The position numbers were made by a program, and so were the translations under genes. The notes beneath the pieces are model-generated. The model did not search any database. It was not told the DNA's origin and worked only from the letters and a program-made list of their open reading frames with translations. From contig JBLDXI010000007.1 in NCBI GenBank assembly GCA_047495785.1, positions 1,984,001-2,048,000 on the forward strand: a stretch of 64,000 bases of DNA. The letters are read 5' to 3'. The stretch is from Lepidodermella squamata. Its lineage: Eukaryota; Animalia; Gastrotricha. Shown here piece after piece: positions 16,391 through 64,000 of the stretch; within the stretch, counting starts at the first letter, position 1, and the number at the start of each line of letters is the position of its first letter.

Positions 16391-16452
16391 ATTTGCTAAA
16401 TTATTTTATCGAATAACGTGTATTGATTTGAGCTTATCTCTGAAAATAGGCC

Positions 16453-17400: not shown

Positions 17401-17499
17401 TTTCTGAAACATCTATTGACACTGAAATATGATATTTTTGATTTGAAACTGAGCTGCATGATAAATTATTTTCAGTTTTTATAGTTTTTGTTGTTGAAA

Positions 17500-24765: not shown

Positions 24766-27700
24766 ATGGATCAGTGTTTATTCCATTCATTTTTCGGGCC
24801 GTTTGATTTTGAAGATTTCGTAAAACGGCGAACCCAGCAGAAACAGTTTGACTGGTTTTTATACGACATGCCCGGCGCGTTGGATGCCATTGGCAAGTTG
24901 AATTTGGCCTCAGATGCCGATGAACTGGTCGAAAGTCTTCAAGACGACTGTATTCAGGAGGATGAAATGGAGGAAACTGAGGAATTTTTTGCTTCAATGG
25001 AAAACGCTACTAGAGCTTTTAATTCGTCGCAATTTCCGAAGGCCTTGTCGCTTTATGGGAAAGCGCGTGAAATTTGCCCATTGTTACCTGAGGTCTACGC
25101 CAAACTATCGGTTACCTTCTCAAAAAATGACCAGCACGAACAGGCCGTGGCGTGTGCGATTGCTGCGTTCATGCTCGACCCACATGACATGGAAGCCGAA
25201 TCGATGTATGCGATGGCTTATACGAAAATGGGCTACATCGATATGGGCAGTAAATTTATCAGCGAGTGCCCGAATAGTGAGGAGGCGAGTTTTGTGAAAT
25301 CTTTGATCAAATCAATGCCGCCGGGTCATAGAAGGCTGTTGGACGATGCGGATTTGAAAGCGACCTTGGAGAATTTGATCAAATGCTCAGAATCGAACGA
25401 AGCGAGCGCTCTCAGGTAAAATCGCGTTTTGATTATTTATTTTGATTGTTATTGACGACACCATGGAAACTGACCAAAACAGAAAAATAATTGATGCTCC
25501 AAATTCCGAATGATAAATAGCGAAATAGAAAATATTTTTAGAAATTTAAAAATCCTCCTTAAGAAATTACATTTTTGTACAATCTCGAAACATTTTATCG
25601 AAAGCATTGAAATTCTATGTTTTATAATTGGCAATTATATGAAAAAAAACGAAACACCAATTTATTACTGAAATTTTACTTGTGAAAGTTTGGAAAATAC
25701 TGAAAACCGGTGACTCATTTCTAATCAATTTTTTCTTGAAAAAATATTTTATTTATATTTATATTTTATTTTATATTTTATTAAACCGCGGAAAAGCAAA
25801 GTAAAAAAATTGATGAGAAAATCAGTAAATCCTCCTTGAAATATTTCTCTAATATTTTCGGATTTCCAAATGACCAAATGACCAAATGAATCAGTTTTAT
25901 TTTTCGTCCTCCGTAGGCATGTGATGTTAATATTAGAGAGTAGAAAAAAGGCCTTACCCGTGAGGGTTTAGGGGACGGCTGATGACAGGCGATCGGCTTC
26001 AGGGGCCGACAGATCGGTCGCGAACAACCTGCTTTTGCCCAAAAATTCATAATTTTCGATGCTATTACACACTAATTGCCATTCATCCCGATCTCTGGCA
26101 TTTATTTCCGCTAATTCTAGATCCGCAATTTTGTGAATTTCAGTGCGTCGCATTAACAGGGTCGACTTACGAGGTCTCCCGCGTCTAACTGGCTCGTTTG
26201 GGTTTTTAATATATTTCACATGAATATCGAACAAACCAATTTTAAGAAGACTCCTTTTCAAGCTATCGGTCCAGCGGGTTGGCGGTTTACCGCGAGGCAA
26301 GTACCAACTCGGGTCGACCGCTTTCCAATGATATATGGCATTCGTGAGACTTTCAGTGTCATACTCGTCTTGGCGAATAATGTGCCCGAAATATTTCAAA
26401 CGATGCTTTTCAATCATTTTACTTAATTCCATAACGTCACAGATCAATCTAATATCGATGTTAGGTATATAATCTGTTCTAAAAAATCCCATAATGGTTC
26501 TGAGCCAGCGCATGAAAGTGACATTTAACCTTTGTTCCTGCTTAGTAGTTAGGTTCCAGGTTTCACAGGCGTAGGTGACGGTAGGAATTACCACACATTT
26601 TAAAACTTTCAATTTTGTGGCTAGGCTTATATGTTTTCTGTTACACATCAGCTTGTTAAGAGCACCAAAACAGCTACCAGCCTTCGCTAGGCGAGCTTTG
26701 ATTTCCTCGTCCATTTTACCGTCTGATGTGATTATGCTACCTAAATATTTAAAAGATGTAACTTTCTCCAATAATTTTCCATCTAGTTCCAGTTGATAAT
26801 TGTTTCGGATTTCCTCCAGTCATAATTTTTATTAGTACTACCCCGCAGGGGCACTACTAGGTTATTAGGGTCGGCGCAAAACGTTTTATTGCTGCGAGTG
26901 TGTTATTTCGAGTCATGATGGCTTTGCACGTTCTTACTAGTCATTAACCCGCTAGCGTAAATCATGACCACCTATTATTGCCTGCGTTTCTACGTTGTAG
27001 CTACAAAATTGATGCTTTTATCTCGACATAATGTATTTTCCTTTCATATAGATGTATGTTCTTGCTGTACCACATTCGCTACCACCACTGGCTACGTGTC
27101 GACTCTCAGGCGAAAATTGCGCAATATCTAGTCCGTTTTCTAGCCGAAAGTGCGCTTATCAAAGAAATCTGTGCTACCGCCGTGAAAAATCTCGAAAAAG
27201 TCACTCATCTATCTCATTGCGTCCTGTACTCGCTGTTCAGTTTACTGGCCGACATTTGCCGAAGCGATGAAGCAACTTGCGCCCTCCTCTGGTCTGCTAA
27301 AGCCGTTCGCATTTTTCTGGCGAATATCGGCATCCAAATTTCGCGTGATAAAATCCTGATCGAAACCGTGACAACCACCGGCAATTTCGGCCGTGGTGTT
27401 GTTCTTAGCTACATCGATTTGATCGCAGCGTTGATGCAGCACCCGAAAGTTCGGTCTGAAATGTGTAAAATTCAACCGTTTTCTGAGGTTCTGTGGTACG
27501 GATTGATTCATGGGATCTACCTCCGGCTCGGCAATGACGAGTTGTTCCATCATGAGTCGAAAATCGAGAGAAAATTGCCAGTTCTATGCCCGGCTTGTAC
27601 CGAGGGAAAATTACCACCGCAGTCCAAGTACCATTCTTTCCTCGATTTTTACTTCGACTGCGACGAGCCCGGGCCTTCGTTCGATTTTTTCGGGAAGTTA

Positions 27701-30700
27701 TTCCCGGTATTTCCGATGCTGGTCGAGCAGTGTGGAATTACGACTAGCATGGAGACGTATGCGATGAACAGCCTTGAATACACGACTCACGTGTTCGCGC
27801 TTCTCAGTGCTATTGGATTATTCGTCAAAATGGACGATCGCAATCGGCTGACGAAGAGCTGCACAATGATGACGAATTGTAAGTATAATTTTTCCTAAAT
27901 GAAAATGTTCGCGATCCAATGAAAGCTTAGCACTCGTCATCTAAAAATATCTGGTTGATAAAATTGAGATAAAATTGAGAATTGAGGAAAAATGTACGGA
28001 GCCAGGTGTTTGATCAGAGTTGCCATCAGGTCCGAAATTCAAGACCCGGCCGCTATTAAAAGCCTATCAATTTGTTTCTAGTCCTTTCATGGTATTTTCT
28101 TTGACGTTTTTGTAGCAAGATTAACAAAAAAATGTTCCAATTTTGCGAAAAATGTTCAAATATTAACAATATAGGAACGTTTTTTCAGTCCCTTGACATC
28201 GTTTAGGCATTTTGCATCAATTACCTGGTTTGGCACATAAAGGTTGAGGTTCAGTGGGAAGTGGGAACCCGGGAATTAAAAAGATATTCAAGTCAACGGC
28301 CTTGGGGTGTGAAACAAGAGAGGTTGGCTTCACAGCTCACTCACTTTGGCTCCGATTTTCCAGGTTCTCAAACCGTTGGAAGGCCATGCTCAAACACCGG
28401 GGTGGGAGAAAAAGAGGGGTAAGCACTGTCATCTTTATTCAAGCCAGTACGGCCATACCAGGCATAGTGGATATCGGGGCCAAGACCCAAAACATCATCG
28501 TTACCTTCGCCTTCGCCTTCACCAAACTCATCCATCGCATTGACAAGAGCGAAATCGTAGGTCGTTTCGTTCGTCGAAGTCGTATCGTTCGTGGCAACAC
28601 CACAAGTCGACTGTCATCGAAAGCAGCGGTCTTCAGACGCGACTGGTCGAAAGCAGTGGGCTGGGCGGGCGGGTCGTGGGCGTCTCAGCTACATAGGCAG
28701 CAGCATCAGCGGCGGACTTGTAGACCCGTCGGTCGCGACTCGGTTGCCACTGCCGAGGACCACGGTAAGCGTCTTCGTGGTTCGCTGATCGAGCTCCACG
28801 ACCATTTCGGCTCATTCCACGAAACGAGTCGTTCAGGCGTCTAGGTGCTAAACGAGGCTTGAAAGAAGTGCGCAAGTTACGGGGCAAGTAGAGCGGGTAG
28901 CCCTCATCATCAAATGATGGCTTTCAACAAGCACCGAAGTAGTGCCCAATCTTACCGCATCCAAAGCAGGTAATATCTGACTTACGGCAGGTCGTACAAC
29001 CAGGCCAGATGTCCGCAACGGGCATTAACTGCGGCGTTGGTGCCACCGGGATCCACCGCCTGGGTGGTTTTAGCGGACTAGGCGATGGCGTATTTGGCGA
29101 TGGCGACAGCTTGGATCGCTTGGATCTTCTTCGTACAAACTCAGTACGTTTTCGAATGTTTTCACATTCGTCATCCAATGCTAAAATTTATCCGCATAAT
29201 TTCAATAATAAGTCCGGCAGGGGGCGATGGCTTCATACGCGATGGGCCACTAGTAATTTTCCTCCGCTCATCGATTGGGCGACCAGGTTCGACAGGTTCG
29301 ATTGGTTCAACTGGGCGACCAGGTTCGATTGGGCGACCAGGTTCGACAGGTTCGATCGCATCGATGTTGAGGGAACGCAACCGTGAATTCGTAGAATCGC
29401 TCACATGACATCGGAAAGAGTCCCATACCAACAGACGCGGCTTCGCAATGGCGGCACCGAACACTCTACCGAATGTTCGTTGCAAGTACTTGGCGGTAAT
29501 CGCATCATCAAACCACACGGTTCCTAGAAAAAGTCAGGAGAAATTAAAAAAAAAATTAAATTCAAAAGAATCACAACAGCCACTCCACCGCAAATACATT
29601 TTTTAAACGTATTCGGTCACATGTCAGTGAGACTGATTGGTTAAATGTTTCGTTTTCCAATTCGACCGTGAAGCATAACTTCATTTTTTCCGCTTGTCAA
29701 GAAAACAGCATTAGCTGAATCACGCCGGCCCGGCAGCTATGAAACGGATAAATGGGTCCCTGAGCGATTGCTGCGACCGCCTCGATATCAACGTTTTCGT
29801 ACCGCACTAATAGTTATATCTATGAGAGCATTGGAAAGATTTTTTAGACGGCCCTCCACTGCTATCAGTTTCGGGTCGAACCCATGATATATTCATAGTT
29901 GTCACTTGAACGATGCGTTAACCATACCTGCTCGAAGGCGACTTGGTTTTTTAGTCAAGAAGTTGAGCCTATGTTTTGAACTACAATGATTTTGCATGAC
30001 CTTGGGTTTCACGGTCTTGAGCCCGTTGATAGAGGGCTTTGCCGGGCTTGGGCGACGAGAATTTGGCAGGGAAGCGTTTCCTTTCGCCACTACTTTTACC
30101 GAAGATGACACGTAACCATGTGGTTATTCCTGCGACCTATCGTTGCATAGGTTTTCCTTCCTGCAGCATGCAACGGTATTGTTATCTTTCCTTGACAAGG
30201 TTCTTGCAGCAGTTTCAGGAAACTGGCTGCGGAAACGTGAACGCACACATTGGGGAACAGCTTCATAACTTCATTCTTCAGGAAGTAATGGGAATTATTG
30301 AATTTGACATGATGGAATTTTGGAATCATTTTTTGGGCGGGTCGAGGCATTTTACGTTTTCATCGTTTGAGCATCAAACCGCAGTTTCCGATTTGATTTC
30401 ACGTATTCATTATTGTTATTGATAACACTTTATTTTCTCTTAGTTTGGCTGAAAATCACCGGCTCCAAGCGCATTGCTAGTTCCTGCAGCGCCGATGTAT
30501 GGTTTTTCCTCGCGAAAAAGCTGTCGCTGTTCCATTCAGAACCTGAAAATCTGAAAGACTTCAAAGCTGATCTCAATAAAACCCTGGATATTATGCTCAA
30601 CCTGGCTGCTGTCGACGATATTGACGAAATTCCGCACATTGAAAGGTGTTGGCTGGCTCTAACCGGAGCGTTGTACCGCTTCGTCGACTGCATAAATGCT

Positions 30701-31372
30701 CCTAAATCGACACCGGCTTCTTTTCTTACCGAAATTTCGATCAAATCTCTTAATATAATGACGCATTTGTGCGCGAAATCGGCGAAATTTGCTCAGCAAT
30801 TTATCACCAATCCGAAGGTGTCGGCCCACCAACTCGTAATGTGGTGCACACCTTTCTCACAAAAACGAGAACAATCAGCGAATTGCTCTTATTCACTCAA
30901 ACTCCTGGCAGCAATTCTGAAAACTATACCTAACTATGCGGACAATTTAGTGAGAAAAATTCCCGATGTTGTATCAAACATGATTGTTGAACTCGTATTT
31001 TGCATTGCAACGAAATCGAAAAATCTCGATTTTATCGCATCTGGCTGTTTGGTACTGTCTCGGCTGATAAAATCATCGGAAAAATCTCGCAACCTTCTCG
31101 CAAAGTCGCTGAAATCTTGCTCTGTTAAGGCGGATGCTTTGATGGAAAAATTGTTCGGATTTATCGCATCGCCTAGCAGTTATCCTGATGCGAAGAAAAT
31201 GCCGAAAAGCGATTTGACGATGGTTACAATGACGATTGTTACGTTTTTACCCTTACTTATCGAGATGGAAGAAAATTGCCGTAAAATCATGTGGAACGAT
31301 TCCAAATTCCGAGCTGCCCGGAAGCGTCTTTCTGCTGATCTGCACGATGAAACGAATGCAATCAAAGCCTAA
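24766..31372 (+). CDS. TPR-ARM paralog 5 (801 aa)
   Basis: Exons 24766-25415, 27052-27878 and 30444-31372. Junctions give ALR-CMFLLYH and MTN-FWLKIT (family FW motif). Degenerate TPR; DDADLKATL family motif. Confidence 0.8.
25745..26820 (-). mobile_element. 5'-truncated RTE-clade LINE (RT C-terminus, 3' UTR and A-rich tail) in intron 1 of paralog 5
   Basis: LDGKLLEKVTSFKYLGSII...IKARLAKA...TYACETW...RLKYFGHI.R...PRGKPPTRWTD. Minus-strand (TAAAA/TATAAAA)n tail at ~25745-25782. Confidence 0.9.
28633..29178 (-). mobile_element. Gag-like fragment with CCHC zinc knuckle
   Basis: CFGCGKIGHYFGAC (C-X2-C-X4-H-X4-C) after a Pro/Ser-rich segment, in intron 2 of paralog 5. Confidence 0.65.
29270..29358 (-). 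repeat. 9-bp-unit minisatellite encoding (I/V)EP / GRP repeats
   Basis: Units ggttcgaca / ggttcgatt / gggcgacca; minus strand reads IEPVEPGRPIEPGRPVEPIEPVEPGRPID. Confidence 0.8.
29362..29525 (-). mobile_element. pogo/Tigger-family DDE_1 transposase fragment
   Basis: WFDDAITAKYLQRTF...RLLVWDSFRCH matches the second catalytic Asp motif of pogo transposases. Confidence 0.8.
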
Positions 31373-31491
31373 TAATTACCGAACGAAGACAAAAAACATT
31401 ATAGCTGATGAATCATATTTAGCATGTCAACATATTGTTTGCATTTTTGAAGATTTTTTCATTAATTTATTTAGTTATTTTCTTATTAAAA

Positions 31492-33909
31492 ATGGCTGAC
31501 TATGATGAAGAATTTGAACTCCCATTTTGCGGGGTGTACACGAACGATGACGACGGTATCGCAGAGGCGATGACTGATATCACGTCAGAGGACGATGTTT
31601 TCGAGTTTCGATCCACCCTAACGTCGTGTCTCGCCGACCAATACACCGGCCGCATAAATACGTCGAAAGCGCTGGAAAAGGCTGAGCATTATTTCAGAGA
31701 AGAACGTTTCGAAGATGCTGTGAAAGAATTCAACCGTGTTATGAAAAGCAATGCAACTTACATGGCCGCCTATCTTGGTCTTATCAATTCCTATGCCTGC
31801 CTTAACCGATGTGAAGATGGGTTCGCTGTAGCTCTAGCTGGCACTCGGACTGTTGCTTACGAAGAACACTGGGAACAAACCTATCGCCTTCAAATCGCTA
31901 TGTTATACGCTCATATGGGCTATGTGAAGAAGGCGTTGGATCAAGTTGCAACTTCTAGAAAGGAATTGGCTGCAGAGAAGAAGAAGCCATTGCCTAAGGA
32001 TGAAAGAGAAAGTCGCGAAAAAATTTGCAGGGCGGTTGAAATGATTGCGCAAAACAACCAAGGAAATCGCGTACTGGACACTCTAGATCTTGAACATACC
32101 CTTGCAACTTTAACTAATCCCAAAACTAGCCAAAGCCCATCGACCTGCGCATTTTTGATTCACCACCTTAACGAACACAAAAAGGTAGCTTCAAGTTCCG
32201 GCAGTTTTTGGGCAAAACTCGAAAAGGCTGGCGTTTTCTCGAAAGTTGAGTCTATTCATGCGTTGAAAGTCGCCTTCACTCGAGCTGATTTTCGGCGTTG
32301 GTCCCTTGCCGAATGTACGCTGATTTGCGAATTTTTCGACCTAGTCTACGCCGATCATCGCGAAGAAGAGAGATTGTACGAAATTCTGTTCGAGCAACCC
32401 GTTGTCAAAACTTTCCTAATCAATTTTGGCCAGACTTTGACCGCCTCTGATACGTTGATTTTCCTCGCTCATCAATCTACAGTTATTCACTTCGACATTA
32501 TTTCGTCTTGGCTTCAATTTTTATTGGCTGTTAGCGAGAAAAAATTCGATGATAAACGAGCGGATTTCTTCAATCAACGGCCTTTCAACAACATTTATTG
32601 GCTATCGAAATTGCTGTATTGCTCAACTGTCGGCATGTTTGGGTCGGTATCGGAACAATTGACCAATATCCATCGCAGCTTTTTCGGGAGGGCTCGAAAT
32701 ACTTACGTTGAATCTCTTCGCCTATTCGAGTTCATTTCCCAAAACGAACCGTGGTTTTCAGACGAAGTCAAACGAATGAACCCTCAGACGTTGCTTGAAA
32801 CGCTGAATTTTCTCGATCTGACCCTGCATTTAAATTTCTATGGTTGGAACAGTATGTCGCTCCAGCCTCCGATTGAAAAAATGATGGAGTTGTCCAATAT
32901 GAGGCGGGATATTGGCTACTCGCCGAGACGATCGCTTGATTTGTACGAAAAATTACTGAATCAAAATCGCGAATTTCTGGTGCCGATTTGCCGCCAAAGA
33001 CCTGGTTTGTGGACGCATTTGTCGCAGAGATTGACCTTTTTCGCGAAAAATTTGGACAATTTTATCGACGATACTCTTCTTGATCTACGCAGTACTTTCA
33101 ATGTTCTCATTATGTTATGCGAAATCGGGCAAAATGTCGAAGCGGATGCTTTTGTAGAAGACAGTGATTTTGAAGATGCGATCGTGAAATCCTGCCATTT
33201 AATTATGGGTCAAAAATTCGAGAAGCCTATCGAAGCTCTGGCTGGTTTAAAGGCTCAAGTTGTTCGACTAATTGTTGGCCTGAACGCCTTGAATCCCGAA
33301 ATTGCGGCTCAGATGGCGAAAGATTCGAAGCATTGCCGAGTTTTCCAGTGTTTTCTCGACCTGCCTGATTATGTACCGATCTCGGCGAAATATTTCCTGC
33401 TCATGGTGACTCATGCGGAGAAAAACTGGATCGCCTCTTTGGCAAAACACCCTAGGATGAACAATTTTCTGGCGAAATTGCTCAATTTTGTCTACGAATT
33501 CAAGGAATATCCGAAAAAAGAAATCGCTGATGTCTGCATGTGTTTGACGAAAACGATTTCACGGAAGCCTGAAATTGTCAGCCGGGAAGTATTGATGGAG
33601 GCTGTTCTGTTTTCTCTATTCGAAGAACCTCAAAAAGTCGTCGCTAAGTTGTCTGCAATGATTCGGCCGACTCGTCGGGCCAGAAGAGCGAAGAAGGAAG
33701 CGGCTGTCGCTGAAAATTCGACTCCAGCTGCTGCTGAACCTCTACCGATTCTACCTCTGAGTGCTGGGTTTCTTTTAGCTGCCTTGGTTCGAAAAGATTC
33801 GACATTTCGCGAGGCTCTTGATGAGGAAAATAGCTTATTTGGACCGGTTTCTGATGAATATCGAAAACTTATTGAAAAAGCCGTTGAACATCCTAGTGTT
33901 GCGTGCTAA
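31492..33909 (+). CDS. TPR-ARM paralog 6 (805 aa, intronless)
   Basis: Degenerate TPR (KAEHYFREERFEDAVKEF), YAHMGY, DLEHTLATL, PFNNIYW, EPWF and RPGLW family motifs. ATG is at 31492. Confidence 0.82.
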   Translation: MADYDEEFELPFCGVYTNDDDGIAEAMTDITSEDDVFEFRSTLTSCLADQYTGRINTSKALEKAEHYFREERFEDAVKEFNRVMKSNATYMAAYLGLINSYACLNRCEDGFAVALAGTRTVAYEEHWEQTYRLQIAMLYAHMGYVKKALDQVATSRKELAAEKKKPLPKDERESREKICRAVEMIAQNNQGNRVLDTLDLEHTLATLTNPKTSQSPSTCAFLIHHLNEHKKVASSSGSFWAKLEKAGVFSKVESIHALKVAFTRADFRRWSLAECTLICEFFDLVYADHREEERLYEILFEQPVVKTFLINFGQTLTASDTLIFLAHQSTVIHFDIISSWLQFLLAVSEKKFDDKRADFFNQRPFNNIYWLSKLLYCSTVGMFGSVSEQLTNIHRSFFGRARNTYVESLRLFEFISQNEPWFSDEVKRMNPQTLLETLNFLDLTLHLNFYGWNSMSLQPPIEKMMELSNMRRDIGYSPRRSLDLYEKLLNQNREFLVPICRQRPGLWTHLSQRLTFFAKNLDNFIDDTLLDLRSTFNVLIMLCEIGQNVEADAFVEDSDFEDAIVKSCHLIMGQKFEKPIEALAGLKAQVVRLIVGLNALNPEIAAQMAKDSKHCRVFQCFLDLPDYVPISAKYFLLMVTHAEKNWIASLAKHPRMNNFLAKLLNFVYEFKEYPKKEIADVCMCLTKTISRKPEIVSREVLMEAVLFSLFEEPQKVVAKLSAMIRPTRRARRAKKEAAVAENSTPAAAEPLPILPLSAGFLLAALVRKDSTFREALDEENSLFGPVSDEYRKLIEKAVEHPSVAC

Positions 33910-34143
33910 ACTTTTTCATAGCTGTTTGATTACAGAGCCATATTATTCAGAAAAATAAAATATAGTGCAATTGAAAATTTAATTTATATCTGATTTTTAA
34001 ATTGGAGGGAAATTGTTTTTTTAAGGAATTTTACCGAAAATCGGGCTTTTATTAAGGCGGGTTTTTTTAATTTATCGCAAATTTCAGTGATTTTCTTTCA
34101 TTTAAAATTGAATTATCGTTGAAATTTAGGTTTTTATTTCACA

Positions 34144-37100
34144 ATGTTCTCTTGTTCATCCGAATCTCCATCCGAAGATGAGGATGCCATTTTGCAACGT
34201 GAGCAGATGGACGCTGCGAATGACAACTACAAACCGATGGAAATTTTCCCTGGCATGAAATGGCACTCTCAAGAGCGCAAAGAAATGTTCGAAAAGCTAT
34301 TTGGCTGCATCAATTACGGTACAGAATCGAACGCTCAACCGCCTGATAATAAGGACTGCCTCGAATATTTGAATGTTTGCTCATCGCAAGAAAAGGCCGA
34401 TGAACGCCATGACGAAATTCGACGCGGATGCCGCGGCATGATCTCGCACAATCCTTCGGTTTTCATGGGGCTTTCTAACGATACTCACACCGAGGGTAAC
34501 AAACTGTTTGCGGCCGGGCGTTACAAGGAGGCTTTGATGAAGTACAAGAAAATGATCCAGGACTCGCCGTATGATAAGCGTTACTACACCAATGCTGGGT
34601 TGTGCTATATTAAGCTGGGTAAATACGAAAAGGCGATCGCTGTTGTCTCAGATGCTGTTTATATTATCGGCGAAAATTGGGCGAAGGGCTATCTGGTCTA
34701 TGCGACTGCTTATTGCCACCTTGGTTATGTCGAATTCGCGCGTCGGTACATTAGAACCTACGCAAAGTCATTTGAAGGTGCGGATCGTCAGGCCGCTATC
34801 GCTAAAATTGAGGAAATTGCGAAGGAGCTGAAGGTCAAGAAGAAGCTGCTCGATGATCAAGATTTGAAGGCGACTATCGATCGATTGTTGGCGCCGAATG
34901 TGTCTAAAAAGCTATTGACGGTTCTGCTCATCCACCTCAACAATCATTTCCAGCAATCTCAAGGAATGTGCACAGGTTGGTAAAATTGAATTATTATAAA
35001 TTAATTTTGATTCGTGTTATCTGACGGTAAACGGATATTTTTCTCATAATTACAATTTCTCAAAGGCCAAACGCCGCCGTTCCGACTGCCGACTAGTTTC
35101 GACATTTATTCGTCATCCTCAGGATCAAACCATAAATTAGAGTGATAGAAATCATACAACGGCATGAAACATCATCGAAAAAGTTGAAAAGAGAGTTTGT
35201 CTTCCTCCGTTTTAGAGGAAGTTGAGAGGCTTCGCCCCTACGACGAAGGGGTTATTTCTTCTATAGATTCCACCATCATCTCAGTATCGTCTTACTCACT
35301 GGAGATGTCCATTAAAGGGGCCCTAACCGGGTGTCCAGAATAAAGTTCCCAACCTCCACGCGGTATGAACTTCTTCCATTCTTCATTAGATCTTTTGGCA
35401 ATGGCTACGTCGATGTTAGACAATAACCAGAGCATTTTCACCAAGTAAGCCTTGAATAGTCCAACTGGCTTCGAGGTGACGTTTATTGGAATCCGCTCTG
35501 CAGTAATGTGACTCTACAGCTGGTAAGCTGAGTAGAAATTTCTTGATTGCGTCTCGTAAGCTCAAGGCTCTTCAGACTTCGGCTTGTAGATGGCTTGTGA
35601 TCAAATTGGATTGCGAAACATCACGTTACCAAGACAGCATTTTTGGTTGATTTGATTGCACTGCGTACTGTGTATCTGCGCTAGTCTGCATGCGACGCAA
35701 GCAAAACAAACATCACAAATGAGACTTTATTGACTTCACTTTACACGCGTATAGCCAAGTTGAGCGCAAGTTGTGCGCGCGATAGAATCTAGGATAACAT
35801 ACACGCCACCTAGCCCGACAATCACACCAACAACGATAGCGACGAAAATCGTGGCTAACCGCTCTCGCCATTCGATTCGAGGACGACGGACGACCAAATT
35901 CTCTAAATCGCGAGGCTCGACGTTTGGCATTGTCGACGATAGTAAATTATTTGCGGATCTAAACAATGGCATATTGTTTATTAATAAAAGAAGTTCTTAT
36001 TCGGACCGATTAATCTGGTAAATATTGATTGCCTGATAAAATTCCTGAACCTTAACCAAGTCTGTTCAGAGACGGTCTTTCGACAAAACCGCAGCTCGCT
36101 TACATTGAAAACGACTGCCTTTAAAGCATATAGTTCGCAATATTTTGTCCACACCGGCGCACGCTCTTGTCGTGCATAGTCAATTAGTTATAATCGTGTA
36201 GCCAAGAACCCACTAGATTCTCTAATAGCACTAACACGACTGTGGAAGTAGACTAGTCAAACAGAGATGAAGAAAATAGCAAGTGCTAGGATCCAGGCTA
36301 ATTGCCTTGTGTCTGTGGCTTGCAACTGCGCGTAAATCCTGCGTCATATTGTTCAAGTCGCGGAAGAACCCGCACTTTACTGTATTGCTGTACTTTACTG
36401 GTGATTTTTTTATTTTACTGTATTGCAAAGTACAGCCCATTAGAGATGAGTCATTCGTTTTAAAATTGGAGAATCTAAAGAAAAAAGAAGACTTTTTGGT
36501 ATTCTTTTCACAGTATTATGCATCAATCTTTCCATCACAATATTATGGAGGTCGATACGCGTAGAATATAAAATTTTCCTTCGAAATTGACTCATCTTAT
36601 CGTACACATTAGTGATTTGGCGCCCTGGAAAAACCGAGTCGAAATTTTGTTCTTACTCCTCGATCTGGATTTTCTCCAAATGATTGGCAGTAACCAGCCT
36701 CTTTCCGCTCGTCAGCAAATGTAATTGCTAGTACAGCTAAGCGAACTGTACTCGCAGTACAGCCTAATTGAGCTGTGCTCATGATGGTCATTGCGGAGAC
36801 GATCTCCTCGGCAGCTCCGTTCCAGAAGCGCATCGGTAGATCGGGGCAGACAGATGCCTTCTTAGACGCCTTCAGGTGGTTCTTGACTTTGTCGCAGTCG
36901 ATTTCGACTTCGGTAGCTTTCTCTGTAGGCCGGTCTTTGAGGAACTTATTGAACTCATCGGATGGTGTCGAGTCGCGGAGATCTTCATTGATTTTCTGTC
37001 CTATGGAGCATTCATGCGCGAGTGTAAAGACTCGTCGTATATGAACATGAATTGACAAGATTTGAAATGAAAAATCAAATTTAATTCTGTAAAACTGTTC

Positions 37101-45518: not shown

Positions 45519-45667
45519 ACTGTGACGAAAAATGAGGACCAAATATATCAGAATTTATAGGCGATAAATGCTTGCTCAAAATCATAGATACGTTTGACGA
45601 AAAATAAAAAACAGCATTGCCAATATTTGCTATTTTTAGATTATTTATTAATTGAATTGTGAGCAAA

Positions 45668-51600: not shown

Positions 51601-51725
51601 CTAAATCAATGCCGGAAAATTCTAATTTGCCTAATCTAGTTTCGAAACTGACGGCTGCAGATCCGGCTTTCGTTGAGGCAATTCGCATGTCCAAGCTTGA
51701 TCTGAACAGCGCAAATGCGGTCTGA
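45668..51725 (+). CDS. TPR-ARM paralog 8 (735 aa)
   Basis: Exons 45668-45824, 47573-48258 and 50361-51725, in frame. IRQLGNKLH..KYTEAIEAY; GERSAEVY, PLNDLSFY and RPGLW motifs shared with paralogs 9-11. Confidence 0.87.
46555..46700 (-). mobile_element. Integrase H2C2 zinc-binding-domain fragment (SCAND3/KRBA2/Ginger-like)
   Basis: IHDVHGQLGRDAVINLMRREFYKVPDAMIYEYLKDIC resembles H...GH.GRD.......Y..I....I..YL..C. Confidence 0.65.
47233..47469. mobile_element. 237-bp TG...CA element with 17-bp terminal inverted repeats and 5-bp TSD (solo LTR or integrase-type MITE)
   Basis: TGTAGAGACCTAAGGAA (47233-47249) ... TTCCTTAGGTCTCTACA (47453-47469), with AAATG immediately on both sides. Confidence 0.88.
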
Positions 51726-51985
51726 AGCTATCAAGGATCATTTTTGGCGAGAGTGATAAAAACATAAATTGACGCTTATTTTCATGCACCATCGTCTTGT
51801 AAATAGTGTTACTCCAGTTTTCCAGATGTAAAATAATTATTTTCTGAAATTGCGGATAAGTAAAACGCATTTTCTGCGGATTTAGAAATGCCGAGATTTT
51901 ATGAAAAACTCCGAGTTTTGAGGCTTGGCTCATTTTTCTTCATTTTTGCACCGCAATTTTACTGAACCTTTTAGGAGTTATTAAA

Positions 51986-54285: not shown

Positions 54286-54649
54286 AATGAATAGAGTGTG
54301 ATTTTCGGTACTTGATCCAAGCAGTCATGAACTGTTCAATTGAAAAAATGAATGGAAAAAGTTATCAAGTGCGCACTGCGCACGCGTTTTTTGGCACGCG
54401 ACTAGCTAGCTGGCGCGTTACGTAATATGGCCATGCTTAATTATCTATATCGATTCGCTATTTCTCTTCTTATTTCGAATTATGCATTTCCGGGCTAACT
54501 TTCATTCTGCGATTCACGCCCTATTTGTTGTGAGCATGCTCGATGGTATTTTGGATTCAAACTTCCACCTTAATATCTCATGTGGAATTGTGCAATATAT
54601 TCTAAACGGCTTTGTATTTGTAGGTTTGATTATTTTTTCTATCACATCA

Positions 54650-57600
54650 ATGAATACTTGGGCTGTATTATTTGGTGGAAAATTGGACTACGAAGCGATT
54701 GCAACCGATATTGAAGTGCCTCCGCCAGTCGATTCGCCGCCGAATCTGGAGCTGTTATCCACTATTGAGACTGGTGACAGCGTGTATTCGTCTCATACCA
54801 AGCTTTGTGAGTTTCCTAATTTTTTTCAATGGTTACACAATGGCGGATCTTACTCCTCGCCTGATAAAATCTCTGAGAATTTTTTCAATGACGATTTGTT
54901 ATTAGTTTTCAATCCGTCGGGGAAGAGCCCGCACTTTGGTGATTTTCGAAAACCTAGTAGTACGTGAATAAAAATGTTTTCCTTGATCGTGAAAAAATCC
55001 ACACACGTACATATTTCTTATCTAGTCCACTCACGTTTAGAGTATAATTTCAACGAATTTCTTGATGTTGACCCTTGTAGCCGGGGATATCCTACGATTG
55101 CAACCCGCAACCGGTTGCGGGCTGCCTAGGGGTTGTGTGGGAACAGACATAAACCATAAGTTGAGCCTAATAACGGAACGGATAAGGCCAAACTCCAGCA
55201 GTCCTGCGAGAAAAAGGAAACCACTAAACCGATTAAACTTCTTTCTTGCCTTTGAGGACTCGCATCTTTGCTTGAGAAATTATCAGTACTACAGCCATGC
55301 AAATGTATGGGTACAATTCGTAATTCTTGAATATAGACGGAGAGATAACCCAAGGAGAGAACTGGGTGGTTGGTGGCCCAATCCATGCATAAGTGTTGCA
55401 GATATTTTGTAAAAATCCTTAAGGTTAAGAAATAATATATTATAACATCGTTCCAGTCGCGGACACATTGATCTAGCTCGAGACGTGGTACCGCTGCATA
55501 CTTGTAGTCCGTGAATTGTCGACACCGTTTCTTCACAGTTCATTGATTTCGTCCATTTCGATGTCATTGTCATGGGCGGCGATGGCGGCGATTTGATTTA
55601 AACGGCACTGCCCGCGGCAGCCGCACTGCGGATTGCAGTGTTTTCCCGGGTGGCGCAACCGCACAGCAGCTCGCGTCTGCATTGGCAAGTGTGTCGAGCA
55701 TAATAATCGAGATGTTCGCGGGGAATAATACCATCAGCAATGCATCCAAGTAAATCAAGCTTCAAATCCAAGGAATCCCCGCAACCGGGGGCAACCGGGG
55801 ATCCAACCAACCTACAACGCCTGCGATCCGGCTCGATTGTTTGACCGCCATCCTTTATCTTCTTTGTTAAATTGTACTCCAAAAATTTCTTTCCAACTGA
55901 TAGCGCCTTTTTGATCAATTCCTTACAAACAGGAATAACGGCGAGACTAACAGCCCTTGTTGGCCGCTCAGATTCAATATCGTACTTAGCTTGAAGTGAA
56001 TAAGTGATGGTCCATCTCTTGGATTTAGGCTCAACGGATACGTAACGGCAGATCCGTCTGAGCTGGTCATCCAGACTTGCGTTTTTCGATAATCGTCACA
56101 GATCTGTGTAATACTCGCGTCTTCGAATTTTAAGTAGCATTTGAGCTTTTGACAACGCAGCTGATTTCTGTAAACAGGATTTCGGCGCTCAGATACCTGG
56201 GCCATTCTTACTCGAATGCAAGGTGCCATCTTATAAATGAGGCAAACAGTTGCGGTGATTAGAACGGCTAAAACAACAATAATAACGAAAATAAATATCC
56301 AGTTTGCCAGGAAACCAGCCTCCAGCGACAAATCCGAATGGAGAGCACAAAATTGCAATTATCGGTAATTGACGCGCGGCACTTCAGGATGTTGATAGGC
56401 GATAGGCAGTACCAAACACTTTTCTTCCGTTTTCTGGAATAGCTATAACGGAACTGTTCTTCTTCAGATCGTAAGTGTCGAAAATTGCGCGATGGTGCGC
56501 CGAAAATGAAGAACTTCACGATTGTATTATTCACCATTTGCTGAGCTCGAGCTCGAGCTTTTAATGCGCGAATGCTCGCAGCATTAACAGCTTCCAGTTC
56601 AGCAATTTTTCTCATCAACTTGGCGTCATTATGGCCGGTGGATGATGACTTTTTCATTGCCATGATTGCTTCCATGTTAGAATTCATCTTTTGCAGCATC
56701 TTTTGCTGCTCGAGCTCGATTCGAGAAGCAAAAGCTGAGGTATCGAAAAATAATAAATTTTATGAGACCGATTGAGACCGAAGAGGTGGCGACGACTACG
56801 TCGAACATATTGGCAAATCGCAGGACAGCATTTTGCCGTTCTATGAATCGAGTTTCACAAACGTTGATCAGTCGATCAACATCACTAGCTGTTTTAAGTG
56901 GCTCTACCTCCGCCTTGAAAATTTAAAGTCTCGCAGCTGATCCCATTACGAAATTAATTACTTGCTCCATCATAGCGAAAATGTTCTGAAAAGCTCGAAC
57001 CAAGCTCGCAGACGACGCAGCCGTTCATCAGAGCGGGTTTATTTTACCCGTGGTATTTTCGTGAATAATTGTGTGGAACTTTTTATCGTAGATGAATGCT
57101 CATAGGCGTCTATTTTCGTATGACACAACACCAATTTGCTATGTTGCTGTGTATTGATCACGCGATTTCCGCGCTCAATTGATGAAGTGCACAAGGCGTC
57201 AAGGTTTTCAACCACCTCGCGAACAATTCGTTGGAAAGCAACTGTTCTAATGAGAAACTCTTCAATGCTGCACTCGATTGAAGACAACCCACAACCACAA
57301 AATGTGAGAGGTCGAGGCCAGCAGCCAGATGGCAGTTATCGTGGGAGCCCATCATTTGCAAAGTATAAATTACAAAATTGTGAGAGATAGCGAGTAGTTT
57401 TCCGAGAGCGATGATTTCATCACGTGATTCCAGATGAATTTCGTTATTTTCAATTTTTCAATCAGATCCATTTTCGTTATCACGGTATACGAGCAAGTTT
57501 TTGCGGTGGAAGTCGTCATCTCAATGTTCTCTAAAATGAGATAAAATCGAATTTTTAACTAAGCCATGATCACGAGTAATGAAAATTGGTTTTTATGCAT

Positions 57601-60600
57601 TTTTTAACAGTAAAAATAAGTTCTATAAAAGGAACTGTCGGTGTTCAGCCAGAAGGGCATGAGAATATAACGAACTATTCCCAAGTACAGGTTTTGCAAC
57701 CGGCGCATTTTCAGTTGGATCGAGATTTGGCATATCAAGAAGGCAAGCCCAGGCTTTAACGCCGTGGTCCACCACCGCCTGGCAGACTGGCGCCAACTAT
57801 CGTCCGTCCTGGCTTCATAATTGCCGTTCGGATAAACAGTTTTTCCGCTGCATCTTACGCCGGGAATTAGACGAAATGGGCATGGCCAGTAGCCACCATG
57901 ACTCTTCTGTTCGAAAATCATATCACGAGCAGGGCTGTCAAAAATCCCAACGTCATGTCGAACTTTGACAATGGCCCCGTTTGCAAGACGGACGCCTACG
58001 TTCCAGAGTCTAGTCATGTCGTGAACGAAAGGTCTCAGTACACAAGAAGGGGTGCGTGATTCCAATCCATGCCATCGCCAGAAATGGTATCGACACCCCA
58101 GGAAACCGGCAAATCGGCAGCCATGTGTTGCGGCCGTAGGGAGTAAACCCGTCAAAAAACCATCGCAGTCGCAGTTCGGTTACAACTCGATTGACCCACA
58201 AAGACCCACAAAGAGAGACTAATCAGTGGTTTTGCAGCTCAATTATTCTACCCGTGGTACCTTCGTGAATAATTTTATGAAATTGTTCATAATGACTAAA
58301 CGCGCATAGGCGCCTATTTTCGAACTTCATAACGTCGAACGCAGTAACAACGCCAGTTTGCTACATCGACATTGCCTCGCGGACGCGCTTGAGAACGCGA
58401 TGGCCGCGCTTGATTGAAGACATGCACGTGGCGAGAGGTCAAGGCCAGCAGCCAAATAGCAGTGGAAAAACACACGAAATTAGTTGAACACACGAAAATA
58501 ATAGTAAGGATAGAAGAGAATTGTTCATTAATTGCGCGACGGCGCTCAGTGAAAACTGGTTCACCCTCGAGCGAAGTGATGATCGCTCGCTTCTCAACCC
58601 GAGTAGTCAAGCATTTACGTTGGAACCGATGTACAGGCAGCAGAATTTCAGGTTTTGTCTTGAAACCCTAAAACGAGTGTGTACTTGTCCTTTAAATTTT
58701 AAATTTTTTCCATATTTCTCTATAAATAATGTTTATTTTTAGGCGATGAAATTTACGGAGGCAAAACTAAAGCAAGTCGAATCGCTGAAAGCGAGTCTCT
58801 GCGCGAATCCGGCAACGAACACTTCCGCAATAAAAACTACAAAGAAGCGATCGAATGCTATCAAAAAGCTATTGTTCTGAACCCTGTCGAGCTGAAAAAT
58901 TACACAAATATCGGAATTGCCTACATCAACCAGGGTCTATTCGAGGAAGCGCTCTGCTATCTAAGCTGCGGTTCTGATATCGACAGGACCGGTTCCGTCA
59001 AGATGAACCTACTCATCATCCGAGCTCATTGCGAACTAGGTCGAGTCGACGAAGCTGTCTTTCAGTTGAAAAATAGCTTGGAAGATATTCCAATGGGTGA
59101 GAGGTCTTTCTATCGCCAAGAGGCTGAAAAATTCATCAAATCAGTTCCAAATGACAAGAAAATAGAAGGTAGTACTGCTGAGTTGGATGAAATCGAAAAG
59201 CGCCTCCTATCTCCCGGCGAAAGGTCGGCCGAAGTTTACCTGGCCCTGATGTCAACCTATCTAACCATGGTGATGGACGAAAAGTTCAACGCCTTTGATC
59301 GTTGGTGCGTATGCCTCGTGAAAATGATGCAGAGAGCACCGTACATCAGCGATTTTCTGCGAGACCCCGAGACTCGAGGCGCTGAAATGACCCCAGGCGC
59401 AGCTCGGTTCATCTCGTCGTATTTCACGCTAGTCGACTCGTTTTTCACTCGTGATGATGGGACTAAGCAATTTCTGGCCGAAGAAGCGCCGCTCGGTAAA
59501 GCTCTATTCAAAATAGCGTATTGCTCGACTAAATTTGAAACATACGAGAAATGCTATCCGAAAATTGGGTTCAGCCTTACTGGTTCTGTTTTTGTCGGAA
59601 GTTTTGTCCCGATTTTGTCCTCCCTCCTAACTGCGAATGCAGTTAGGAATGGATACTTGAAAAATACCCCACCTTTCAACGATTTGTCATTCTACGTCCA
59701 TTTAATGGCAAATTACATCGCGGCGTATGATACTAGAAATTCGCCTGATACCGAAAAATTCAACCGAAATATTACGAGTATACTATGCGAGCCTTGGTTT
59801 CTTGAAAAATTGGAGTCGATGCCACGTGATAAATTGGACCATGCCTTGTCTCTTCTCGCTGCAATCAGCACGATTTTTATGAATTCAAGGCACGAAATGT
59901 TGAGGTCGCAACAGCCTCCGTTTGCTTCGTATCTACCTTTTTGGATCGCAATGTCCGAGCGGCCGAATTTGAGACTGGTTTTAGCGGCTCGTCCTGGTGT
60001 TTGGCATCATGTAGCCGCCAGATTGGCCTACGCCACGACTAATTTTTCGGAATATTCGCCATTCAGCAAGGAACATTTGAAGGAAACGTTAACTCTACTC
60101 GCGAATTTGACGGTGGAACAAATCGATCTTGACGAAATTGTGGCCAATACGGCGTCATTGGAGCGTTTGCGGAGGGGTTTGGCGGCTGTTTTGTGTAACA
60201 AGGATCTGAGATTAAAGTCTAATACTAAAAATGCATTGGTGATTGCCAAAAATCTGAGTGAGATGAATTCGATTTTTCCGAAAATCTTTCTGGCTGTTGA
60301 TGAGCCGATATTGTCGAGAATTTCTACTCTCTGCTTGAACAAGGAGTTCGAAAATGTCGCTTTTCCTTGTTTTGTGGTTTTGACGAATTCGACGTATTCG
60401 AAAAAAATTGTCAAATTTTTGAAGTTAGCGAAATCTGAAGATTTCGTTAAAAATTTATCAGCGCGTTCTATGGAGATGAATACGAGCCTTGATTTCGAAT
60501 CAGTAATAATCGTTTTCAAGAAGTTTATTTCATCGGCTTTGGAGCTTTCTGACGATGAGGCGAAAAATCGAATCAAATCGAATTCTGAGAGTTTCGTGAA

Positions 60601-60820
60601 TCTGGTCGCTCATTTGTTGACGCAATCGGCAATCAAAAGTGATATTCTTTATTCTGCGATGGAAATGTTGACCGAAGCATCTAATATCGATGCTAGCATG
60701 ATCGATAAATGTCGATCGATCGCCAACCATGGCTCTTTCCTCAATTTGGCGAAGGAAATTCGAGCTGATTCTGAAAACGCTGCGAAGACAAATTTGCTCA
60801 ATTTTTGTGCCAATTTTTGA
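54650..60820 (+). CDS. TPR-ARM paralog 10 (744 aa)
   Basis: Exons 54650-54806 and 58743-60820 (3.9-kb phase-1 intron at the same position as in paralog 9). Closest paralog of 9 (SERPNLR..LAARPGVWHHVA.RL). Confidence 0.88.
57040..58465 (-). repeat. Two diverged copies of one unknown sequence (~57040-57340 and ~58245-58465)
   Basis: Shared blocks tacccgtggta..ttcgtgaataatt, cataggcg.ctattttcg, gattgaagaca and gagaggtc.aggccagcagcca.at.gcagt. Confidence 0.7.
57610..58200 (-). mobile_element. CMC-superfamily (EnSpm/Mirage-like) transposase fragment with a frameshift
   Basis: FFDGFTPY...AWIG..HP / LRPFVHDMTRL...G...DSPARD...KSHGGYWPC...YP.....RT...NLYLGIV matches the DG / D.PAR / H.G...C / LYLG motif order. 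Confidence 0.8.
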
Positions 60821-61001
60821 TTGAATAATTGTTGTTAAGGATTTTAATTTGCGTTTCATTGTTGAATATACGATTTGCGATACAGATATCCATAATTCGT
60901 GAAGATGTTATCCAACTCGTGATAATTTGAAAAATAACATTCCTAATACTGAAATTCAATCAACATATTAAAAACGTTCACTCGGGTTACTTTTTAGAGA
61001 A

Positions 61002-62772
61002 ATGGCTGAAATGAATGTTTTCAATACTCTCTTTGGTGAAAGTTTTGTTTACGAGACTGCCGCAAATGGCGAAAATTCAACTGTACCCGTGGATGGGCCT
61101 GAACATTTGAACTTCATATCAACGATTACGTCTTCTTCGGCAGTCAGCGATTTGAATATTCGGATAGGTTTGTAAATATTTCGTTATTTTTTGTAATTTA
61201 AACGGGTTTAATTTTCAAGGTCTTGATTTGGCTGGAGGAAGGTCCAAGTACGAGAGGCAAATTGATGGCGCGAAACTGAGAGAAGAAGGCAATGAGCTAT
61301 TCAAGGCGGAAAAACACGTCGAAGCCATCGAAATTTACAAGAAAGCTCTCGCATCAGATCCTTACGACGTTCGAATCTACAACAACATGGCCATTTGCTA
61401 CATTCATCTCGGCCTGGACGAAGAAGCATTCGCAATCTGCCAACAAGCCCTGGAAGTCGATCTTCAATCGCCGAAGTTACCTTTGCTCCTTGCCCAGGCA
61501 AAATGTAACCTCGGACTCGCCGGCATTGTTCCTCGCGAGTTGGACAACGAAGCCGCTTCAATGCAAGAACGCGATATTTATCGAAAGGAAATCGAGAAAA
61601 TGATTAAGGCGGTTCCGGAATATAACCGGAGAAAATTTGATGAGGCGTTTCTAACTGAAATCGAGCAGCGTTTGTTGAAAGAAGGCGAAAGGTCCGCCGA
61701 GGTTTATTTTTTCCTACTCCATGTCTTTTTCGGTATTACCCTTTATCGATTGAAAAATCACGGGTTTTCTCATTACTTGGAGGTTATATGCAAATGCATG
61801 GGTAATACGCCGTATTTGAAGCAGTTTTTGACCGATCCGAAGGGCCATTTCAAGAAAATGTCCGGGGCCGAAGTACTCCTTGTCACTACCTATTTCCAGC
61901 AATTTCAAATGCCGATCGAGTTCAACAAATCAATTGCTGAGACCTTTGTCGAGCCGGAATTTATTCGAAAAATGATGGTAAATTTAGCGTATGCCGTGAC
62001 TGATAAATCGAATGTTCAAGACCATTTCACGCGGCTGGGCGCTTCGTATGTCGTCGGCGGGTTTTTCGGCCCGTTTGTCAGCATGCTGTCCACCTTAATC
62101 AAGAACGAAAAGGTTCGAGGTGGCTTCATCAAATCGACCGCGCCTTTCAATGAATTTTCATTCTATGTCCATTTGATGGCGATGTATTTCGCGATTTATG
62201 ACACGAAAGAATCGTCGCCTTGTGAAGAATTTACTCATGCTTTTACGCAATTGATGTGTGAACCTTGGTTCATTGAAAAATTCGAAAATTCGGGCCGAAG
62301 CAATATTAATCATGCTTTATCTATGCTATCCTGCATTAGTTCGCTTCTTCTTCAGAGTCGAATTGAGGTGAATCGACTTCAAAAAGCGCCTTATGCGTCT
62401 TTCCACCGAGTTTGGATGAAATTATCTGAAAATTCGAAAATTCGCGTTGAGATGGCTGACCGTCCTGGCGTTTGGCTTCACCTCATTTCTCGCCTTGGTT
62501 ATTCGGCTAAGCACATTTCGCTGTACAACACGGTTTCGCATCATCGCAGCCACCTTGAAGACACTCTGTTGGTTTTGAAAAATATTTCTCAACCGGAAAT
62601 TATTGCTATTGGCGATGCGCCTGGTGCTCGTGACAGCCTTGAAGAATCTCTGACTGTTCTGCTCAATTTCAAATGTGCCAATACGGAAGTGAAAATTTAT
62701 TTTGACAATATTGTTAAACTTGCGACTGAGTTGAAATCTCGTTTATTTGAATCATCAGCTGGTGCTGTTTAA
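61002..62772 (+). CDS. TPR-ARM paralog 11 (572 aa, shorter C-terminus)
   Basis: Exons 61002-61167 and 61220-62772 (52-nt phase-1 intron). LREEGNELF..KHVEAIEIY...YNNMA; GERSAEVY, PFNEFSFY, CEPWF, RPGVW. Confidence 0.87.
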
Positions 62773-62840
62773 ATTTTTTCTGACAATATTTTCCGGCTAT
62801 GATTTATTTTCTATTTTTTTCGATAGATTTTTTATTCGGA

Positions 62841-62997
62841 ATGGATTATTTGGCTACGTTGTACGGACCAGTTTTTGACTATGAGGCTATTGTGAAGGAG
62901 AAAATCGTCCGCCCGCCGGTTGATACCACTGATAATTTGAAGCTGATTTCCAAAGTCGACTGTGCGAATGAAGTCAACGATTTCAACACCCATACAT
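62841..62997 (+). CDS. TPR-ARM paralog 12, first exon only (rest lies beyond the window)
   Basis: MDYLATLYGPVFDYEAI...PPVDTTDNLKLISKV, homologous to exon 1 of paralogs 8-11, ending at the same phase-1 donor T|GTGAGT. Confidence 0.8.
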
Positions 62998-63269
62998 GTG
63001 AGTTGCCATTTTTTATAACTTTTCCGATGTTTTGCGATTCCTCTCTTGATCACTATAAGGTTGTACTCTTTAAATATGAGATTTTAAAATATATCAGAAT
63101 TTTGAACCTGTCTGGCGATTCTCCTGAGCCAAGAGAACTTCCTTTGTTGTGTATCGAGTGCTCGGAAAGTGTCGCACCCAGGGATTAAACCCGGGCTGCC
63201 TTTCTGAGAAGGAACTTCCTCGAGGTCGGGGTAGTTGCGTTGGCTCATTTGTCTATTTCTGGAGCGGTT

Positions 63270-63500
63270 TATTTTTGGGCCATGGAAAATTGTTTTCTTC
63301 CATGTTTTGAACTTGCACGCGTTCTCGACGAATTCGCCTTCAGTCCCTTCTCTCCTGATCCAGTACAGATTTTGACCTGCGGGTCGAACGATAGAATAGG
63401 GTCCGTCGTAACGATCTTCGAACTTTCCAGATAGGCCAGGATTTATCCGACGCCGAGCCATGTCACCGGGTTGGTAACTGATATCACTGGCGCCTACGTC
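63270..63500 (-). mobile_element. Gypsy integrase C-terminal GPY/F-domain fragment
   Basis: YQPGDMARRR...SGKFEDRYDGPYSIV. Confidence 0.8.
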
Positions 63501-64000
63501 CCAAGTGGCTTTTCGCTTTGCCTCGGCCTTAAATTGAAAATTTAATTTGAATTAAATAAAAACTAGTTGAAAGTTACTAGTTAAAAAATCTGCCTTAATT
63601 CCGTAGCTAATGTGTGCGGTCATTTTTGTGAGGATTTTTAATAACAGCACTTTTGAATTTGTAAAGAATGAGCAGTAACACAGCCACTGTTCAGGTGGAG
63701 TGATGTCGGATGAGTTTGCTGGCATGCAAAGAGATCATTTAGTTGGTCGCAGAATAAGGAGGCGTCGTTTGCTCGTTTCCGTGCTGATGTATATTTCGAA
63801 GGAAAACCTCGACCATGAGCTGGATTGACGCTCATCGATGTATCTCAGCAAGTTTTATATTCAATCGAAGATATCTTTTAAATACGAAATTAACGAGGGT
63901 ACTCCGTAAAATGGAATAATCGATTCTACGCCCATCAAATAAGCATCACGTTGATCGTTTGAGCCGTTCATTTTGCTACAACTTGCTTCTACGTATCGGA

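Follow-up and report, generated by a model that had tools for sequence, protein, structure and literature searches.

Transposon remnants oriented against the host transcript in the large introns of a TPR-ARM gene array of Lepidodermella squamata

Transposon remnants in human introns are biased towards the antisense orientation in seven of the eight families compared, hAT and TcMar being among the eight, and the bias reaches about 2:1 at most (PMC3517506). In fly ovarian somatic cells (OSCs), sense intronic inserts nucleate Piwi-dependent trimethylation of histone H3 lysine 9 while antisense inserts do not (PMC3504300), and in the flam-like unistrand clusters the strand bias of long terminal repeat (LTR) elements is driven by Gypsy (PMC10643416). 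Here we describe a 64,000-nucleotide stretch of DNA from the gastrotrich Lepidodermella squamata (contig JBLDXI010000007.1; hereafter the window), in which eight large introns of an array of TPR-ARM genes hold a dense mosaic of transposon pieces. A preliminary description had claimed that the pieces all oppose the host transcript and are a candidate one-strand cluster for Piwi-interacting RNAs (piRNAs) distributed over introns. We find that the transposon content is strongly antisense to the transcript, and that the mosaic arose through ordinary insertions, some nested in others, and deletions in place, inside old introns of about 50 nt.

In human introns, as here, the remains within spliced introns oppose the host gene and belong to several classes, and the loss of sense copies has been invoked. 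However, the human ratio is about 2:1, whereas here it is 9 to 0 at the strictest threshold, and here the remnants are fused pieces of 100-500 bp in a compact, intron-poor, operon-like array that shows no motif depletion. Piwi silencing in OSCs supplies a motif-independent cost to sense intronic inserts of any family that has antisense piRNAs, but the observation concerns individual insertions in cultured fly cells, whereas for this locus we infer a long-term evolutionary filter. The flamenco and flam-like clusters are likewise mosaics of transposons in one orientation, antisense to a Pol II transcript, but they are dedicated loci for which piRNAs have been demonstrated, while the feature described here lies in spliced introns of intact protein genes and extends its bias to DNA transposons and a LINE (long interspersed nuclear element). 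Gene-linked sources have also been described, including genic and read-through core piRNA clusters of mosquitoes (bioRxiv 10.1101/2022.08.22.504762), an antisense Tirant copy in a 3' untranslated region (UTR) (PMC13226689) and intron-mapping piRNA reads of Aedes albopictus, although the available passages on the last are inconsistent on strand (PMC5041409). In the mosquito genic clusters and the 3' UTR Tirant, host-gene transcription supplies antisense sequence of invaders, as it would here; the sources there are read-through RNA, gene-overlapping clusters or 3' UTRs, often with viral content, while here they would be eight spliced introns in which no viral piece was found. At the level of literature listings and the beginnings of abstracts, we found no description of a one-strand cluster distributed across the introns of polycistronic genes. 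As an extreme form of intronic antisense bias, in an unusual genome, the feature is well supported; as a candidate piRNA source it is reasonable but unproven.

The large introns are true spliceosomal introns of functional genes. All eight begin with a GT donor and the seven that are complete in the window end with an AG acceptor. Four host genes have large introns that are complete in the window, and splicing these genes in silico gave stop-free coding sequences of 802, 803, 736 and 745 codons; paralogue exon models at 18510 and 51986 had wrong boundaries and were left out of this count. Four sequencing runs were found, all as assembled contigs, among which one (X1) behaves as diploid DNA and two (X2 and X3) behave as RNA, with adapter sequence and poly(A) loose ends. 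The RNA-like contigs have a depth of about 24-118 in exon-dominated bins of the array, and they bridge introns 2, 4 and 6 exactly (GT..AG joints 27878-30444, 38345-45179 and 48256-50359); no bridging contig for the other five large introns is among the contigs listed. Introns 5, 7 and 8 lie at the same codon and in the same phase as a 52-nt intron of one paralogue and an intron of about 56 nt of another, and are therefore enlarged old introns. The eight introns as first described thus stand.

Because Pfam searches are insensitive here, we turned to a homology-free codon model, trained only on the genes before 25.4 kb; it assigned 10 of 10 held-out exons to the correct strand. Non-overlapping intronic segments were counted and compared with 100 replicates of a Markov null. 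There were none on the plus strand and 9 on the minus strand at ≥15 bits (null means 0.5 and 2.0), 2 and 14 at ≥12 bits (2.0 and 6.1) and 8 and 21 at ≥10 bits (5.8 and 12.9), with a similar result in another analysis. The plus-strand counts are near the null, and the observed difference between the strands was reached by 0, 0 and 4 of the 100 nulls at these three thresholds, respectively; the strand bias exceeds chance. The minus segments of ≥10 bits are 78-828 bp long (median 216) and make up 5,544 of the 21,956 intron bp. The earlier estimate of 1/256 for the orientation of the eight named pieces is harder to uphold, because it presumes p = 0.5; when the codon-model counts are set against an intronic baseline of 2:1, they yield p = 0.026, 0.059 and 0.33 at ≥15, ≥12 and ≥10 bits, respectively. 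Outside the large introns, the spacers and smaller introns, which come to only 6,532 bp, hold one plus and one minus segment of ≥12 bits and no RTE, hAT or CMC protein match among the matches listed, in keeping with the claim that the spacers lack such debris.

All seven transposon coding pieces that have tool support are on the minus strand (Table 1). Homology confirms the assignment of RTE, pogo, CMC and hAT pieces, the last of these being an addition to the eight named earlier, and these four firm pieces belong to different transposon superfamilies and lie in three introns. The assignment of the GPY/F piece is moderate, and the assignments of the integrase H2C2-like piece and the CCHC knuckle are weak. 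The knuckle is the only CX2CX4HX4C in six frames of all introns, and coding-like minus segments run on from it to 28419. Two pieces named earlier, a Gypsy integrase core (39412-39555, minus) and a second LINE (36687-36959, minus, in intron 3), gave no match in repeated searches; both labels had come from motif resemblance, and the second piece is coding-like. With RTE, pogo, hAT, CMC and LTR-integrase pieces in about 22 kb, the introns hold a dense mosaic of many families.

The orientation claim was also examined by hidden Markov model searches, in which none of the 141 plus-strand open reading frames (ORFs) of ≥38 aa, all of them searched, gave a credible transposon coding match. One 13-residue plus-strand match to IN_DBD_C (E 0.086) was rejected as likely chance noise. 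At E ≤ 0.01, ORF-wise Pfam searches (141/141 plus and 150/162 minus ORFs) returned DDE_1 only, and at E ≤ 0.5, with 150 of the 155 ORFs of ≥53 aa scanned (the other five lie where intron 1 starts with AT-rich sequence), SH3_Tf2-1, Histone and IN_DBD_C were added. A whole-frame Pfam scan of introns 6-8 gave no transposon family. A PDB sequence search missed even the RTE piece, and its blanks are therefore weak. Some fragments had been called virus-like, a label that found no match in Pfam, in three IMG/VR scans or in one low-confidence BFVD fold search, all of them insensitive to short divergent pieces. The statement that everything is antisense is too strong, as one non-coding RTE-family 3' tail lies in sense.

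Table 1. Coordinates of the host array, its large introns and the features within them (positions in the window)
Feature	Position	Strand	Remarks
Host array, expressed TPR-ARM genes	24766..62772	+	TPR Pfam matches, open spliced coding sequences, RNA-like contigs
Intron 1	25416..27051	+	1636 nt; ~690 nt without the RTE insertion
Intron 2	27879..30443	+	2565 nt; exactly skipped by X2 RNA-like contig
Intron 3	34976..37108	+	2133 nt
Intron 4	38346..45178	+	6833 nt; exactly skipped by RNA-like contigs of two runs
Intron 5	45825..47572	+	1748 nt
Intron 6	48259..50360	+	2102 nt; skipped by RNA-like contig; unassigned coding-like pieces, mostly minus
Intron 7	54807..58742	+	3936 nt; near single-copy
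Intron 8	62998..64000	+	continues past window end
5'-truncated RTE LINE	25868..26814	-	tandem-repeat 3' tail; 12-bp target-site duplication 25856-25867 / 26803-26814
RTE reverse transcriptase, C-terminal part	within 25868..26814	-	E 5e-72; relatives with RVT_1
Gag-like CX2CX4HX4C zinc knuckle	28927..29025	-	E 0.093; expected family the only Pfam match
Pogo-type DDE_1 transposase piece	29354..29533	-	Pfam DDE_1 E 1.4e-4
Small membrane-type ORF	35739-35936	-	intron 3
172-codon ORF	38816-39331	-	bin depth ~6x exon depth; no transposon match
Composite stretch, intron 4	38816..39555	-	172-codon ORF, 55-nt GT-AG segment (39333-39387), integrase-core-like piece (39412-39555, unconfirmed)
Small membrane-type ORF	40169..40456	-	paralogue 44609-44800 (-); multi-copy family
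Inverted-repeat element	40486..44173		3688 bp; ~290-bp terminal inverted repeats (29 bp perfect, 82% overall); 4-bp target-site duplication
RTE-family 3' tail, non-coding	about 42046..42115	+	sense, carries AATAAA; opposite-strand joint 25987->42053
Piece of high-copy repeat	42504..42649		146 bp; X1 depth ~4000-5850, 35-42 contigs
H2C2-like piece, then GT-AG mini-intron	46350..46706	-	mini-intron 46350-46405, 56 nt
Integrase H2C2-like piece	46560-46706	-	E 0.043; expected family the only Pfam match
TGT...ACA element (solo LTR or miniature inverted-repeat element)	47233..47469		237 bp; 17-bp perfect inverted ends; 5-bp target-site duplication
ORF without transposon match	55601-56095	-	atlas: only unnamed eukaryotic clusters, low recognition value
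hAT transposase piece	56785..57021	-	tblastn E 5e-11; relatives with Dimer_Tnp_hAT, DUF4371
H3-like decayed copies	~57039-57340, ~58243-58470	-	flank CMC piece; differing internal gaps
CMC/EnSpm-like transposase piece	57640..58038	-	best E 2.8e-12; Transposase_21 weakly in 1/8 relatives scanned
Gypsy integrase C-terminal GPY/F (SH3-like) piece	63318..63470	-	SH3_Tf2-1 E 0.003; atlas neighbours MLVIN_C, Integrase_p58_C, SH3_Tf2-1

The introns bear the marks of canonical insertion, with ends, target-site duplications and empty alleles, followed by decay in place. Three elements, the truncated RTE, the 3688-bp inverted-repeat element and the TGT...ACA element, retain ends and a target-site duplication; together they account for 4,872 of the 21,956 intron bp, and the preliminary description overstated its case in saying that the pieces mostly lack their own termini. 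A scan for ends and duplications was mostly noise (118 candidates versus 76 and 68 in two shuffles), and only the two elements whose ends are perfect over 29 bp and 17 bp were retained from it. The RTE insertion is high-copy (X1 depth 1163-5462) and is absent from one haplotype, in which a contig of depth 53.8 joins 25848 to 26803. For the 3688-bp element there is also an empty-site contig (joint 40480->44173), which may derive from a paralogous copy; this element interrupts a multi-copy family of small ORFs and carries the 146-bp high-copy piece and the sense RTE 3' tail nested within it. In the second haplotype of intron 7 there are deletions and replacements of 50-350 bp. The DNA depth is 82-302 in introns 5-8 and about 87-141 in exon bins; at ≥80% identity, many of the pieces accordingly occur in few copies or in no other copy. 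The exon alleles of the two haplotypes also differ densely, with 11 listed differences in 52647-52764, for example, which would fit a large population in which selection is efficient.

Capture of the pieces as complementary DNA is disfavoured, since two pieces retain introns and paired copies show gaps made in place. The retained introns (39333-39387, 55 nt, and 46350-46405, 56 nt, both GT-AG) lie inside minus pieces and point to insertion at the DNA level. A scan for such mini-introns found four on the plus and six on the minus strand, which is not above the null mean of 8.3 per strand. An X1 DNA contig that lacks 39333-39387, with a short side of only 21 letters, hints at a possible intron-less, perhaps reverse-transcribed copy elsewhere. 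Two further structures were noted: early in intron 4, an 80-bp near-perfect palindrome (38413-38492), and next to the RTE insertion, a short GC hairpin with CTAG after it (26826-26860). We take both to resemble the ends of rolling-circle or foldback elements.

Several of the minus pieces have no transposon match, and part of the minus signal could have its origin in host genes or pseudogenes nested in antisense, or in a single large element that carries genes, and not in many independent transposons. Four ORFs (38816-39331, 35739-35936, 40169-40456 and 55601-56095) run from ATG to stop or keep introns, as such genes would, and two H3-like copies are present; the H3-like sequence matches Pfam Histone at E 0.036 and a PDB H3 variant at E 0.97, while the second copy has no PDB match. 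However, the four firm pieces from different superfamilies in three introns, together with abrupt junctions and broken frames, make this explanation improbable. Single-sequence folds of two unassigned ORFs were of low confidence (predicted local distance difference test scores of 36 and 51), and fold searches with the second gave no match. A cysteine-rich piece (30127-30270, minus) ends in a CCxxxxLCN-like motif, which we take to be reminiscent of three-finger domains; Pfam gave no three-finger family for it.

The bias could also arise at integration, for instance from the direction of transcription or replication, with no later selection. The youngest insertion, the still-polymorphic RTE, is indeed antisense as well. 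LINE, LTR and cut-and-paste elements have unrelated integration chemistry, and one bias shared by all of them is therefore unlikely to result from integration; moreover, the RTE tail lies in sense. We give this explanation very little credence.

With modest confidence, we favour selection: the introns would be a graveyard of transposons from which selection has removed inserts that lie in sense within a transcript that is probably polycistronic. The TPR-ARM array is part of a run of co-directional genes, all on the plus strand, that extends from about 2387 to the window end. The genes are closely spaced and most of them have a T-rich AG shortly 5' of the ATG; one RNA contig has a poly(A) loose end at 31443, which is 31 nt before a T-rich AG (31474) and 49 nt before the next ATG (31492). 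This spacing appears operon-like, probably with trans-splicing.

Under selection, the locus would have taken shape in four steps. Old introns of about 50 nt were enlarged by insertions of LINE, LTR and DNA transposons, some of them nested, and in-place deletions, seen in the two haplotypes and in two duplicated pieces, trimmed the inserts to remnants of about 100-500 bp. A transposon gene inserted in sense would then be part of the array's transcript and would be handled as one more gene of the operon, so that the host gene and the genes downstream would be cut off. Alternatively, antisense piRNAs would recognize a sense insert in the nascent RNA, and the array would be silenced. Antisense copies would escape both fates and persist. 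Introns would be the only tolerated landing sites, as the exons and spacers of a packed, co-transcribed array would tolerate no insertion. In favour of selection, the bias is seen in coding pieces, while the non-coding RTE tail sits in sense. Selection against sense inserts produces an identical orientation bias whether or not the introns supply small RNA; the introns would be shaped by small-RNA and RNA-processing pressure and need not be a source themselves.

Several observations weigh against the selection reading. The bias at 0/9 and 2/14 is above the human maximum of about 2:1 (at the loosest threshold, with p = 0.33, it is not significant), and the three identified DNA-transposon pieces are all antisense (3/3). 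Intron motifs are about equally frequent in sense and antisense (acceptor-like, 9 versus 9; donor-like, 9 versus 11; AATAAA, 24 versus 27). The sense strand is not depleted and gives no sign that processing signals were simply purged, which lowers the motif-purge version of selection and does not lower the versions that invoke Piwi targeting or exon-like sequence. Indeed, the RTE tail with its AATAAA is tolerated in sense. No leader sequence was seen for trans-splicing of the array, and for this reason trans-splicing is only a supposition. The large mosaic introns are regional, making up none of the five plus-strand introns before 25.4 kb compared to eight of the ten after it, a boundary that was picked after the data had been seen. 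Finally, many pieces have frames that are still open over 150-190 codons even though they are near single-copy, and this would suit an archive that is maintained no less than a graveyard.

Some of these observations bear on the idea, which we regard as possible but doubtful, that the array doubles as a candidate one-strand source of small RNA, in which intron RNA of the long plus-strand transcript, either excised or left unspliced, would be cut into antisense piRNAs or guides and the remnants would be kept for use. In its anatomy the locus is like a one-strand cluster, as the preliminary description had recognized: at least five unrelated kinds of element, mostly from low-copy families and many of them near single-copy, lie in about 22 kb as short pieces of one orientation (median minus segment 216 bp). 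The bias above 2:1 with DNA transposons included, the lack of sense-strand motif depletion, the concentration of mosaic introns in one region and the difference in fragment content between haplotypes would all suit such a source, and the mosquito clusters, the 3' UTR Tirant and the Aedes albopictus intron reads provide gene-linked precedents. On the other hand, three of the eight introns are cleanly skipped by RNA contigs, although a minor unspliced or lariat-derived pool would be invisible in contigs, and known precursors lose their introns first or splice poorly. Introns of mouse pachytene piRNA precursors are removed before processing (PMC7782496) and moth piRNA precursors are rarely spliced (PMC5844692); the word 'intron' does not appear in the available text of PMC4662822. 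In addition, the flam-like loci, with their Gypsy-driven LTR bias, are traps for somatic endogenous retroviruses and differ in content (PMC10643416), and no viral pieces were found here. The fullest form of the idea is still more tentative: a polycistronic protein-gene array would be a one-strand piRNA cluster spread over its introns, whether these are spliced out or retained, with an archive of LINE, LTR and DNA-transposon pieces that turns over between haplotypes and in part has no close genomic copy. Selection and a small-RNA source can coexist.

The rest of the window gives the setting of the array. The TPR and helical-repeat family comprises about 12 genes, mostly of 570-830 aa, at 2387-8950 and 18510-64000, and five aligned pieces share 29-48% identity. 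Just 5' of its first gene there is a coding-like segment (2052-2339, plus, 17 bits) that may be an unannotated exon or small gene, and a near-duplicate segment of about 100 bp (4640-4740 and 5590-5690) lies upstream of the ORFs at 4768 and 5683, its first copy ending in an out-of-frame ATG. Six mutually similar single-exon genes stand in tandem at 9500-18447, and we presume them, from motif resemblance, to be aldo-keto-reductase-like. INTS11 (10603-12976) is inserted after the first of the six; one relative is 80% identical to it, the named homologues among the matches listed (at least 120) are from animals and are 43-62% identical, and in a tree its very long branch could not be placed. CpG observed/expected is mostly 1.0-1.5 across the window, with no depletion, which suggests little DNA methylation. 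No locus of a relative was found in JGI metagenomes, seven window proteins had no entry in the protein cluster collection searched, and Rfam gave 0 matches.

Inside genes, a bias in strand is not by itself enough to identify a piRNA cluster. If the introns do make piRNAs, the spliced introns of ordinary genes would be a transposon archive, contrary to the view that precursors are unspliced or exonic. If selection against sense inserts is the true explanation, an operon-like genome would filter the orientation of intronic transposons far more strictly than mammals do, and without visible motif loss; such a filter would point to targeting of nascent RNA or to operon-style processing as the cost of sense inserts.

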